From positions 1 to 64,000 of IMG/VR virus record IMGVR_UViG_3300045988_163776: DNA of 64,000 bases; one strand, written 5' to 3'. The translations under genes and the position numbers were made by a program. The notes beneath the pieces were generated by a model. It was not told where the DNA came from and ran no database searches. It saw only the letters and a list, made by a program, of their open reading frames with translations. Source of the stretch: a virus. This document shows positions 38,855 to 41,406 of the stretch, piece by piece (position 1 is the stretch's first letter; the number at the start of each line of letters is the position of its first letter).

Positions 38855-41406
38855 ATATGTAGATACAACCGCAATTATGTAGGTAATTGGTTCTGTATTT
38901 AACAATGTAGGTTTATTAGATTTATCTGATAAATATACTATAACAGATGAAGATTTTTGTAATGAATTTCATAAAATAGTATTTGGTGCGATTTATAAAA
39001 TATATGAATTAGGAGCAAAGGAAATAACTTTAGAAACAATATCAGATTTTTTGTCAACACGTCCAAAGGCGTAGGCTATTTATAAGCAATATAAAGGTGA
39101 GGAATGGTTGCTTGAAGTTTCTGAAAAAAGTATGCCAGCAACTTTTGATTATTATTATAATCGTATGAAAAAAATGACTTTATTAAGAGAATTCGATAGT
39201 CATGGGATAGATGTAACTTTTATTTATGATCCAGATAATATCCTTGATACAAAAAAGAAACAATTATAGGAAGATAATTTGGATAATGCTTCATTAACAT
39301 CTATCGCTCAAAAAGTAGTGGATAAAATTGAAGAAATTAGATATAGATATGTTGATAATGAATTTGATGAAATAACATCGGCTGGAGATAATATTTTTAA
39401 TTTAATAGATAGCTTAGAAAAAAATCCAGAAGTAGGAATTCCTTTATATGGTCCGTTAATTAATACTGTTACTCGAGGTGCAAGATTAACTAAGTTTTAT
39501 TTGCGGTCAGCACCAACTGGTTGTGGTAAATCTAGATCAATGATAGCTGATGCTTGTTATATTGGTTGTAATATGATTTATCACGAAGATTTTGGTTGGA
39601 TACATAATGGTACTGCTGAACCTACTTTATTTATTTCAACAGAACAAAAAGCAGATGAAGTGCAGACAATGATGTTAGCTTTTTTATCTAATGTAGACGA
39701 AGAACATATCTTAAATGGAACTTATTAGGGAGATGAAAAAGAGCGAGTTTTAAAAGCCGCTGAGATTTTATCTAATAGTCCTATTTATATAGACGAACTT
39801 CCAGATTTTTCTTTGCAAGACGTTGAAAATCATATAAAAAAAGGCGTGCGGGATTATGGTGTAAAATATGTGTTCAGTGAAAACTAAGGACAATGAAATA
39901 CTTTTCCGCAAATCAAGCGGGGTTATTTAAGTTTTTAAATAGCTAACGGGGAAGCCTAAGTTCAATAAGAATATGGTAATCCCGTGGGAAAATTTTTGGA
40001 CAACTTTCGTTTGGAAATAATCGACTACTTTCATACCATATGAAAGGAGAGATTTATATATGAATGGAATAATTTATTGCTATACTAATTTAGTTAATGG
40101 TAAACAATATATTGGTCAAACTATAGACCAAGAAAGCAGAAAAAAAGCTCATAAAAGTGCAATGATAAATGAAAAAAATTGTGAATATAATACACCTTTA
40201 CATAGAGCTTTTAGAAAATATGGATATGAAAATTTTTCTTATGAAATTTTAGAAGAAAATATTGATAATTTTGATGAATTAAATGAAAAAGAAATTGCTT
40301 TTATTAAAGAATTTCAGTCTTAGGTTCCAAATGGCTATAATATTGAAGCTGGAGGAAAAAATGCTTCTAAACCAAAAACAGAAGAGTAGAAAGAAAAATT
40401 AATGAAAGCAATGGCTGTATTGTCAGAAGAAGAAGTTATTGAATTACGAATTGCATATATGAATGGAGAAAGTCCTACTAAGATTTATAAAGAAAAGTAT
40501 GCTAATAGAATGCATTATAATTCTTTTTTAAATATATGGTCTGGACGAAAATATAAATATATTATGCCAGAAGTAATTCAAAAAGGTCGTCATACAAAAT
40601 TAAATGCTGAATTAGTAAAAGAAATAAAAATTAAACGAAGAGATAAAAAAACCTCCTATCAGAAATTAGCAGATGAATATAACGTTTCAAAATCTACTAT
40701 TGCTGATATATTTAAAGGGAGAACATGGAGAGATGTCCAAATTTAACCTGTATCGACTATCCCCTAAGCCTTTTGGGCAGGGGAGTAGGGCTACTATTGA
40801 TACGTAGTTAAGTTTTAGGAAACGAAGCTTATGAAAACCGAAAAGGTATCCTCTTCTAAGGAAGAGTAAGAGTTAGTCAGTGCCATTGGAAACAATGGAA
40901 TAACATGTTTAGATTACATGCATACAAGTATTAAAATATTAGAAGAAATAACAAGACGTTCTGGTGGCGTTAAATTAAGAGAAGACAATATCTTATTTAT
41001 GATGTCTATAAAATTAAAAGATATATGTAATCAATTAGGCATCTTTATTATGTCAGCTACATAGCTAAATAGTAGCTATGTAGACGCAGAGACACCAGAT
41101 TAGAATTTGTTAAGAGGAGCTAAGTCGATCGCAGATAAGATCGATTTAGGTATGATTATACTAGGGGTTTCCCCAGAAGACTTAGCTAAATTGGATCCAA
41201 TCATAAAAAATAGAGGATTTGAATATCCTAATATGAAAATATCAATATATAAAAATAGACGAGGCTCATATAAAGGAGTATATTTATGGTGCAAAGCAGA
41301 TTTATCTACTTGTAGAATAACACCTTTATTTTGTACTGGCTATGACTTTATATTTAAAGAAATAGATAATACAACAATTAAGGTTGATGAATCTGCGTTT
41401 GAATAA
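38844..41406 (+). CDS. DnaB-family replicative helicase, split by a group I intron (exons 38844..39874 and 40908..41406); 6 in-frame TAG
   Basis: N-terminal DnaB-like domain. Walker A RSAPTGCGKS. Exon junction ...GVKYVF|LDYMHTS restores the H3 motif. Exon 2 contains SATQLNSSYVDAETPDQNLLRGAKSIADKIDLG. Confidence 0.6.
39875..40907 (+). other. group I intron (IA2-like core) in the DnaB-like gene, carrying a GIY-YIG HEG
   Basis: Core AGCTAACGGGGAAGCC...GTAATCCCGTGGG resembles the T4 td intron P3-P6. P7-like CGACTATCC lies after the HEG. The exon ends in U before the 5' splice site and omega-G is at 40907. The 3' element is shared with the RecJ and DnaE introns. Confidence 0.6.
40060..40746 (+). 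CDS. GIY-YIG homing endonuclease (intron-encoded), 2 TAG
   Basis: GIIYCYTNLVNGKQYIGQT...YNIEAGG. C-terminal HTH-like DNA-binding module. Confidence 0.65.

Follow-up and report, generated by a model that had tools for sequence, protein, structure and literature searches.

The DNA analysed here, a window of 64,000 nucleotides (nt) that comprises positions 1 to 64,000 of the IMG/VR virus record IMGVR_UViG_3300045988_163776, is AT-rich (30% G+C) DNA of a gut-type phage, and it carries a gene for a DnaB-like replicative helicase that is interrupted by an insert with an open reading frame (ORF) for a GIY-YIG homing endonuclease. The first part of the helicase gene runs to ...GGT GTA AAA TAT GTG TT, the last base being 39874, and past this base the unspliced frame continues as TTC AGT GAA AAC TAA and meets a stop at 39885-39887, four codons into the insert. 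The insert ends in ...AATAACATG, with G40907 as its last base, and the second part of the helicase gene opens at 40908 with T TTA GAT TAC ATG CAT ACA.... Joining of 39874 to 40908, with TAG read as Gln, gave a DnaB-like helicase of 509 amino acids (aa), in which both the Walker A motif APTGCGKS and the Walker B/H3 motif FLDY are present. With a probability of about 0.93, we interpret positions 39875-40907 as a mobile group I intron that belongs to the IA type, with P7.1/P7.2, is closest to the introns of orf142 of phage Twort, and would be spliced out of the helicase transcript.

The spliced product was compared with known helicases by several searches. In Pfam, one single DnaB_C match (64.9 bits, cutoff 27) covered residues 207-473 and ran across the junction at residue 344, and the DnaB N-terminal domain was matched with 28.5 bits (cutoff 23). 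The alignment to the helicase of Enterococcus phage VRE9_4 was gap-free across the junction, with 39% identity (E = 2e-127). Using tblastn against GenBank phages, 120 records were found to cover at least 80% of the spliced helicase in one place (Enterococcus phages, Bacillus SPbeta YorI and others), every hit among the matches listed being a single piece, and when IMG/VR was scanned with the spliced protein, all 80 loci obtained carried an uninterrupted helicase, at 57-67% identity apart from the contig L109 described below. The insertion point is inside a Phe codon just before the LDY (Walker B/H3) motif of the helicase. A point absent from the initial annotation of this DNA is that neither the helicase, with 6 TAG codons, nor the endonuclease, with 2, can be read unless TAG stands for Gln. 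Of the six exon TAGs, three align with Gln in the comparison with the VRE9_4 helicase, among them those at the Q of the SATQLN motif and of DQNLLRG.

An intron-less allele was found by the IMG/VR scan with the spliced protein. The contig L109, of 124,943 bp, encodes a helicase protein that is 98% identical to that of the window in one uninterrupted 1,527-base stretch, and at the DNA level its identity to the window is 99.2% for the 4,000 bases that end at 39844 and 96.6% from 40912 on. The alignment of the joined exons with the L109 gene extends over 1,530 nt and shows 47 mismatches without any indel, and the six helicase TAG codons are at the same offsets in L109, which reads ...GTAAAGTACGTTTTTCTGGACTATATG... 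without the intron. Since this alignment is free of indels, the extra DNA in the window is exactly 39875-40907, the extent given by the initial annotation. The two phages display an insertion/absence polymorphism with a defined exon junction. The further proposals of that annotation on the host gene also agreed with the data: the junction GVKYVF/LDYMHTSIK is matched by the joined exons and by the L109 allele, the split of the Phe codon into UU/U is seen at 39874/40908, and the DnaB H3 motif is recreated, as indicated by the unbroken DnaB_C match and the gap-free alignment to uninterrupted phage helicases. L109 carries neither of two introns of the window, that of the helicase gene and that of a RecJ-like gene, the latter being split by an intron of the same family at 43660-44716 with its own GIY-YIG ORF at 43837-44544; at this second position the alignments of L109 on either side abut within 3 bases.

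Seven further distinct introns were found at exactly the same helicase site in other IMG/VR stretches (L019, L020, L022, L044, L064, L090, and L098), and that of L020 is only 358 nt long and ORF-less. The internal guide sequence at 39884-39892 pairs continuously with the ligated exons UGUU/UUUAG: its part GGACA (39888-39892) forms P1, with the splice-site wobble U39874·G39889 within UGUUC/GGACA, and its part CUAAG (39884-39888) forms a 5-bp P10 with the exon 2 bases UUUAG (40908-40912), P10 being only about 2 bp in the orthologs. The guide lies 11 nt upstream of the first hairpin, likewise in Enterococcus phage EF1 and in the same-site introns. Among the latter, a compensatory change of exon position -3 and guide was observed, GUGUU occurring with GACA and AUAUU with GAUA (pair counts at -3, GC 6 and AU 3), 9 of 10 cells have the splice-site U·G, and G is the last base of each of the 8 distinct same-site introns. 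In the initial annotation, P1 was called weak and the 5′ boundary the least certain one. The former holds, as P1 has 4 exon bp and 1 intron bp, and this shortness gave reason for the latter; the uncertainty is nevertheless removed, because the 5′ boundary is fixed by the L109 allele, the same-site exon/guide covariation and the continuous P1/P10 pairing of the guide. A real intron with a junction a few bases off 39874/40908 is exceedingly unlikely: an exon 1 ending at U39871 would also keep the frame and give GVKYV/LDY, one residue shorter, but the 39874/40908 product is exactly as long as the helicase of L109 and those of all uninterrupted homologs, the guide pairs with the UGUU ending at 39874 and not with the bases ending at 39871, and the exon/guide covariation is in register with 39874.

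The helices of a group I core were located on both sides of the endonuclease ORF (Table 1), with J6/7 standing before P7 and a GAAA between P7.2 and the P3 3′ strand. Pairs were counted in an 18-sequence alignment of ORF-trimmed related introns and in a separate 31-sequence alignment of the 3′ domain. In the 18-sequence alignment, standard pairs occupied 89.2% of the pair cells, compared with 73% in shuffled alignments and ~40% with slid partners, and 48 of the 82 pairs were changed on both sides; none of 500 shuffles reached the observed values. P3, P6, P7.1, P8, and P9 covaried, and the 31-sequence alignment of the 3′ domain gave the same picture. P6 was 100% paired with both-side changes in all 3 pairs, and P9 had both-side changes in 6/6 pairs of the 31-sequence and 5/6 pairs of the 18-sequence alignment. 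For P3, the pair 52/334 of the 18-sequence alignment was found as UA (5), CG (4), and AU (2), all four Watson-Crick types occur family-wide at the second position (AUAC/GUAU, ACAC/GUGU, AAAC/GUUU, and AGAC/GUCU), and none of 1,000 re-pairings reached the complementarity of the cognate strands. P4 and P7 do not vary in the alignments; a compensatory P4, CGAG/CUCG, occurs in the RecJ intron of the window, and L020 provides compensatory swaps in P7.2, from GG..CC to CC..GG and from C-G to G-C. Supportively, an unguided minimum free energy (MFE) fold of the ORF-less ortholog recovered the same helices (z = -2.8). Chance is excluded, because 0 chance occurrences are expected in the window for a 19-base piece of the intron core and the covariation lies above all 500 shuffles. 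The insert thus holds covarying RNA helices, and the pair counts support the group I assignment of these helices.

Table 1. Positions of the helicase exons, the proposed intron and its structural elements in the 64,000-nt window
Feature	Position	Strand	Remarks
Helicase exon 1	38844..39874	+	DnaB N-terminal domain, Walker A motif APTGCGKS, up to ...GVKYV + UU
In-frame TAG codons of exon 1 (= Gln)	38880, 39072, 39267, 39726	+	positions conserved in L109
P1 5′ strand	39871..39875	+	exon UGUU + intron C, paired to GGACA 39888-39892; U39874 = splice-site U
Group I intron (proposed)	39875..40907	+	1,033 nt; precisely absent in L109; structure and covariation
Internal guide sequence 5′-CUAAGGACA-3′	39884..39892	+	read directly from the sequence
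P3 5′ strand AUACUUUU	39898..39905	+	pairs with 40842-49; pseudoknot with P7
Hairpin A, CCGC-AAAUCAA-GCGG	39906..39920	+	first peripheral hairpin between P3 5′ strand and J3/4; covaries
Hairpin B, UUAUUUAA-GUUU-UUAAAUAG	39923..39942	+	family-variable length; in MFE fold of ORF-less ortholog
P4, ACGGG 39946-50 / CCCGU 39981-85, around P5 (39954-39977)	39946..39985	+	GCUAA precedes P4
P6 5′ strand GGG 39986-88; P6a 5′ strand UUUGGAC 39995-40001	39986..40001	+	pair counts
GIY-YIG homing-endonuclease ORF, 228 aa	40060..40746	+	in P6a loop; TAG at 40321 and 40387; stop TAA 40744-46
P6a 3′ strand GUCCAAA 40735-41; P6 3′ strand CCU 40747-49	40735..40749	+	pair counts
P7 5′ strand CGACUA	40754..40759	+	pairs with UAGUC-A-G 40874-40880; family-invariant
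P7.1 hairpin	40761..40783	+	96-98% paired; 5-6 of 8 pairs changed on both sides
P7.2 three-way element	40788..40839	+	GGGCUAC...GUAGU 40788-40808, optional hairpin 40809-40831, closing CC 40838-39; covaries
P3 3′ strand AAAGGUAU	40842..40849	+	covariation
P8 hairpin CUCUUC-UAAG-GAAGAG	40851..40866	+	both-side changes in 5/6 pairs
J8/7 UAAGAGU + P7 3′ strand UAGUC-A-G	40867..40880	+	= classical S element
P9 hairpin with GAAA loop 40883-40898, then tail AAUAACAUG to terminal G40907	40883..40907	+	covariation
Helicase exon 2	40908..41406	+	first U completes Phe codon, then LDYMHTS...
In-frame TAG codons of exon 2; stop TAA 41404-41406	41062, 41101	+	

Besides these helices, the loop of hairpin A (AUCAA, 39910-39916) is complementary to a loop of P7.2 (UUGAU, 40795-40803), and compensatory variants of the two loops occur as ACUAA/UUAGU in the RecJ intron (43686-43692 with 44599-44607) and as GUCG/UGAC in an L022 intron (3177-3333, minus strand). 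These paired changes suggest a tertiary kissing-loop contact between hairpin A and P7.2. Three candidate pairings were dropped. A P7 at the CGACUAC copy near 40017, proposed by hand reading, was given up since this copy is absent in EF1 and in ORF-less members; the small hairpin ACC-GAAAA-GGU was discarded since family covariation places GGUAU in the P3 3′ strand and CC in the closing of P7.2; and P3 as CUAA/UUAG was abandoned on family covariation as well.

The relatives of the intron were further analysed with R1, a covariance model built from the 3′ domain of the intron. The helicase intron was its top match with 178 bits, a score to be read with the fact that the model alignment includes this copy, and the 3′ domain of the RecJ intron (44552-44719) scored 136 bits (E = 5e-32), which bears out the resemblance between the two 3′ elements noted in the initial annotation. 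R1 also matched two introns of Twort orf142, which contains group I introns according to the annotation of GenBank AF132670, with 33 bits (E = 2e-6) and 18 bits (E = 0.011), as well as the 3′ part of an intron in L041 that is scored 72.6 bits by the Rfam group I model RF00028. A 23-base piece of the 3′ core, GTAGGGCTACTATTGATACGTAG, was present in 104 IMG/VR stretches, in many different genes and in introns some of which have an ORF and some of which do not. Alternatively, the helicase might be permanently split into two half-genes around a free-standing GIY-YIG gene, the halves being translated separately with no splicing. Such an arrangement is known for some T4-like phage genes, an ATG at 40918, ten bases into exon 2, opens the same frame, and no Rfam intron match was obtained. 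We consider it very improbable, since the sequences on either side of the ORF make up a covarying group I core with matches to Twort introns as well, exon 1 breaks in the middle of a codon, no Shine-Dalgarno sequence was seen by eye before ATG 40918, and a free-standing endonuclease gene would leave unexplained the 358-nt ORF-less version at the same site.

Outside the collection of same-site introns, the 3′ core of the intron (40759-40843) matched genomes of Prevotella Lak megaphages with 83-84% identity over 69-85 bases, which indicates the same intron family in very distant, also TAG-recoded, phages. A megablast search with 24 kb of the window against GenBank phages gave no match, and the phage itself is therefore not in that collection.

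The ORF inside the P6a loop is intact. Its ATG is preceded, at a distance of nine bases, by the Shine-Dalgarno sequence AAAGGAG (40044-40050); at the other end, the final codons share bases with the P6a 3′ strand and the stop codon lies directly next to P6. The product matched Pfam PF01541 with 24.4 bits (cutoff 22.6) and the PHROG 7168 homing endonuclease with E = 9e-40, consistent with the GIY-YIG endonuclease gene that had been assigned to this intron from the outset, and it contains GIIY, YIGQT, R27, H31, E78, and N94 (the Asn of GYN). Y6, Y17, R27, and H31, followed by the Glu and the GYN Asn, correspond to the catalytic positions of I-TevI. TAG-containing orthologs of the endonuclease are present in six of the same-site introns (L019, L022, L044, L064, L090, and L098), and the first TAG of the window ORF is an ordinary Gln codon in L090. 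At the C-terminus, HTH_3, HTH_7, and HTH_psq were matched at residues 176-222 with E values of 1e-4 to 1e-3, all below the cutoffs, in a region that is conserved in the orthologs. A 7-bp hairpin, UUUCAUA-CCA-UAUGAAA, at 40029-40051 overlaps the first bases of the Shine-Dalgarno sequence and may limit translation of the endonuclease; limited endonuclease translation is known for I-TevI in T4.

Several points weigh against the assignment as a splicing group I intron with a functional endonuclease. At its gathering score, RF00028 found nothing in the whole window, the only Rfam finding being a tRNA, a Rfam search of 39500-41300 at E values up to 10 gave no group I match, and on the ORF-less same-site ortholog RF00028 scored no more than 17.3 bits, its gathering score being 50. 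In its layout the intron deviates from the textbook form: it lacks a P2 between P1 and P3, and its P3 5′ strand is separated from GCUAA-P4 by two hairpins (39906-20 and 39923-42). P1 is short, with just the five pairs given above, although it is phylogenetically supported. The C-terminal helix-turn-helix (HTH) matches of the endonuclease are weak, the best, HTH_3, having E = 1e-4 and 22.7 bits against a cutoff of 23. Splicing is inferred from the sequence. Finally, no suppressor tRNA was detected by ARAGORN in the 64-kb window, which has only a tRNA-Leu(UAA) at 105-181, so that neither the helicase nor the endonuclease can be expressed without a factor that is encoded outside it.

With regard to Rfam, the gathering score of RF00028 is a detection threshold and not a defining feature of group I introns. 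The RF00028 match on the ORF-less same-site ortholog, below threshold as it is, was full-length (E = 0.039). When seven loci with ORF-less family members were searched with Rfam, the sole RF00028 match was a different intron, that in L041, and nothing was found on the ORF-less member in L009. As to the layout, the P3 5′ strand begins 5 nt (AUGAA) after the guide, and from its predicted structure the intron is IA2-like and not strict IA2, as P7.1/P7.2 are present whereas a P2 hairpin and the abutment of P3 on J3/4 are not. Hairpins described between P3 and P4 were not found in a literature search, whose partial coverage makes this absence weak evidence. It is conceivable, at somewhat less than even odds, that the intron belongs to a large and largely unannotated phage family that forms a distinct structural variant of IA introns, with no P2, two inserted hairpins and a kissing loop that perhaps replaces the role of P2.

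The short P1 would also fit a decayed group I intron that no longer splices, the helicase then being dead or dependent on a helper. This seems highly unlikely: in this copy all core helices, the U·G pair and the terminal G are intact, the copy is the top R1 match (with the reservation on its 178 bits stated above), the helicase exons are open and indel-free relative to L109 with 98% protein identity, and no second replicative helicase was evident by eye in the 64 kb.

For an active mobile intron, the following course of events is proposed. In the folded pre-mRNA, the guide at 39884-39892 would hold the exon 1 end UGUU, with the wobble U39874·G39889, and a free guanosine bound in P7 would attack after U39874. 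The terminal G40907 would then take the same P7 site, exon 2 UUUAG being held by P10, and the exons would be ligated to yield an mRNA for the intact 509-aa helicase. Helicase alleles that lack the intron would presumably be cut by the GIY-YIG product close to the insertion site, after which recombinational repair would copy the intron, together with some flanking exon sequence, into the cut allele. Catalysis, endonuclease activity, target site and homing are thus predicted from the sequence features described above. The differences between the window and L109 were also mapped: 12 mismatches fall in the final 30 nt of exon 1 and 17, then 11, in the first two 200-nt bins of exon 2, whereas the background is 0-2 per 200 nt across most of the 4 kb upstream. 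This clustering at the insertion site would fit co-conversion of flanking exon sequence during homing, as circumstantial evidence. A second, unrelated cluster of L109 differences, at 38445-38845, is located just before the helicase start and inside the ORF 38294-38854, with 14 mismatches per 400 nt versus 0-3 per 200 nt elsewhere upstream.

The intron was then compared with known systems. The introns of Twort orf142 belong to subgroup IA2, and a crystal structure of the I2 ribozyme (Golden et al., 2005) is cited in PMC3984707. In the R1 alignment, the helicase intron shares with them the P7 strands CGACUA / UAGUC-N-G, the P7.1 hairpin, P8, the joiners AGUAGG and CGAAAUGG, the AUAGUC of the S element, and a P9 with a GGAAAC loop; both are introns of phage protein-coding genes with P7.1/P7.2 between P7 and the P3 3′ strand. 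In Twort, a P2 hairpin precedes P3 and the P3 5′ strand abuts J3/4. Unlike this, the helicase intron has no P2 and has two hairpins after the P3 5′ strand, and it differs further by an extra P7.2 hairpin, the ORF in P6a and the host gene. The td intron of T4 is an IA-type group I intron in a phage gene of DNA metabolism (thymidylate synthase), with the GIY-YIG endonuclease I-TevI encoded in the P6 loop, and the helicase intron is alike in intron type, in the class of its host gene and in the placement of a GIY-YIG endonuclease in the P6 loop. The P4 of td, UAAACGGGGAAC...AAUCCCGUG, is similar to that of the helicase intron. Unlike td, the host gene encodes a helicase, and the endonuclease is only distantly related, its best Pfam match being the generic GIY-YIG family (24 bits), and has a weak C-terminal HTH match and recoded TAG codons.

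In crAss-like phages, self-splicing introns have been described in core replication genes, with reassigned stops in both host gene and intron ORF (Yutin et al., 2021; PMC7886860), the host genes in that study being MCP, PolB, primase, and an ATPase, with DnaB not among them. The helicase intron resembles these in having recoded stops inside both its host gene and its ORF. In contrast to the crAss-like phages, which are phages of Bacteroidetes, the window agrees in gene order (Sak4-like gene, helicase, middle gene, RecJ) with Enterococcus phage VRE9_4, and the helicases that most resemble its own are those of Firmicutes phages (Enterococcus, Bacillus, Staphylococcus). The DNA polymerase III alpha intron of Enterococcus phage EF1 (MF001358) matched with 74% nt identity over ~12% of the query (~320 bases), the matching region falling in the endonuclease ORF and the 3′ core; its GIY-YIG ORF is related to that of the helicase intron, and its core is laid out in the same way. 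It differs in its host gene, and EF1 is not recoded at these positions, its ORF containing no TAG and being annotated only as 'hypothetical protein'. A paper on phAss-1, which deals with TAG-recoded phages related to EF1, does not mention introns. No group I intron in a phage DnaB-type helicase gene was found in the literature, the search being of partial coverage and the absence weak evidence; phage replication genes that harbour group I introns with homing endonucleases are already well known.

Recoding extends beyond the helicase locus. TAG is used as a sense codon, apparently for Gln, in many replication, nucleotide-metabolism and endonuclease genes of the window, and several long ORFs of the first 23 kb contain no TAG (e.g. 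2067-4895, 5509-8010, and 19279-21111).

Other mobile elements were observed in relatives and elsewhere in the window. In L020 (1-1700), the helicase has an intein-like insert in the Walker A region (...VTHN/TRSM...), the ORF-less intron at the VKYVF site (787-1144), and, after NLLRG (~1300-1640), another intron of this family; the helicase gene appears to be a hot spot of mobile-element insertion. In the window, a DNA polymerase III alpha-like gene is apparently split at ~51640-52643, with a GIY-YIG-like ORF at 51857-52609, and an anaerobic ribonucleotide reductase-like gene at ~57580-58485, with an ORF at 57733-58344. R1 gave no match on these two inserts except a weak one at 58338-58391 (E = 0.43), so that, if introns at all, they are members of other families. 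Four apparently free-standing homing-endonuclease-like ORFs were noted by eye, at 8039-8956 (minus strand), 32722-33492, 48100-48792, and 61230-62153, each with 5-9 in-frame TAG codons; three of them are mutually paralogous, and that at 61230-62153 has a GIY-YIG-like YIGQT. The window is thus dense in mobile endonuclease genes.

The understanding of how group I introns work is unchanged by this finding; its consequences concern the phages and their annotation. The helicase and the adjacent RecJ gene are miscalled as fragments unless the intron and the reading of TAG as Gln are taken into account jointly. In metagenomic phage contigs the intron family is common, but it is invisible to the Rfam group I model, and a dedicated model would repair many gene calls; if the family is indeed large and a distinct structural variant, gene calls would be systematically broken in many gut-phage genomes, because Rfam misses it. 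L109 and the window offer a clean natural before/after pair for a homing event, in which a donor-like exon tract is visible. As the endonuclease can be produced only under TAG suppression, mobility of the intron would be tied to the recoding system of the phage.

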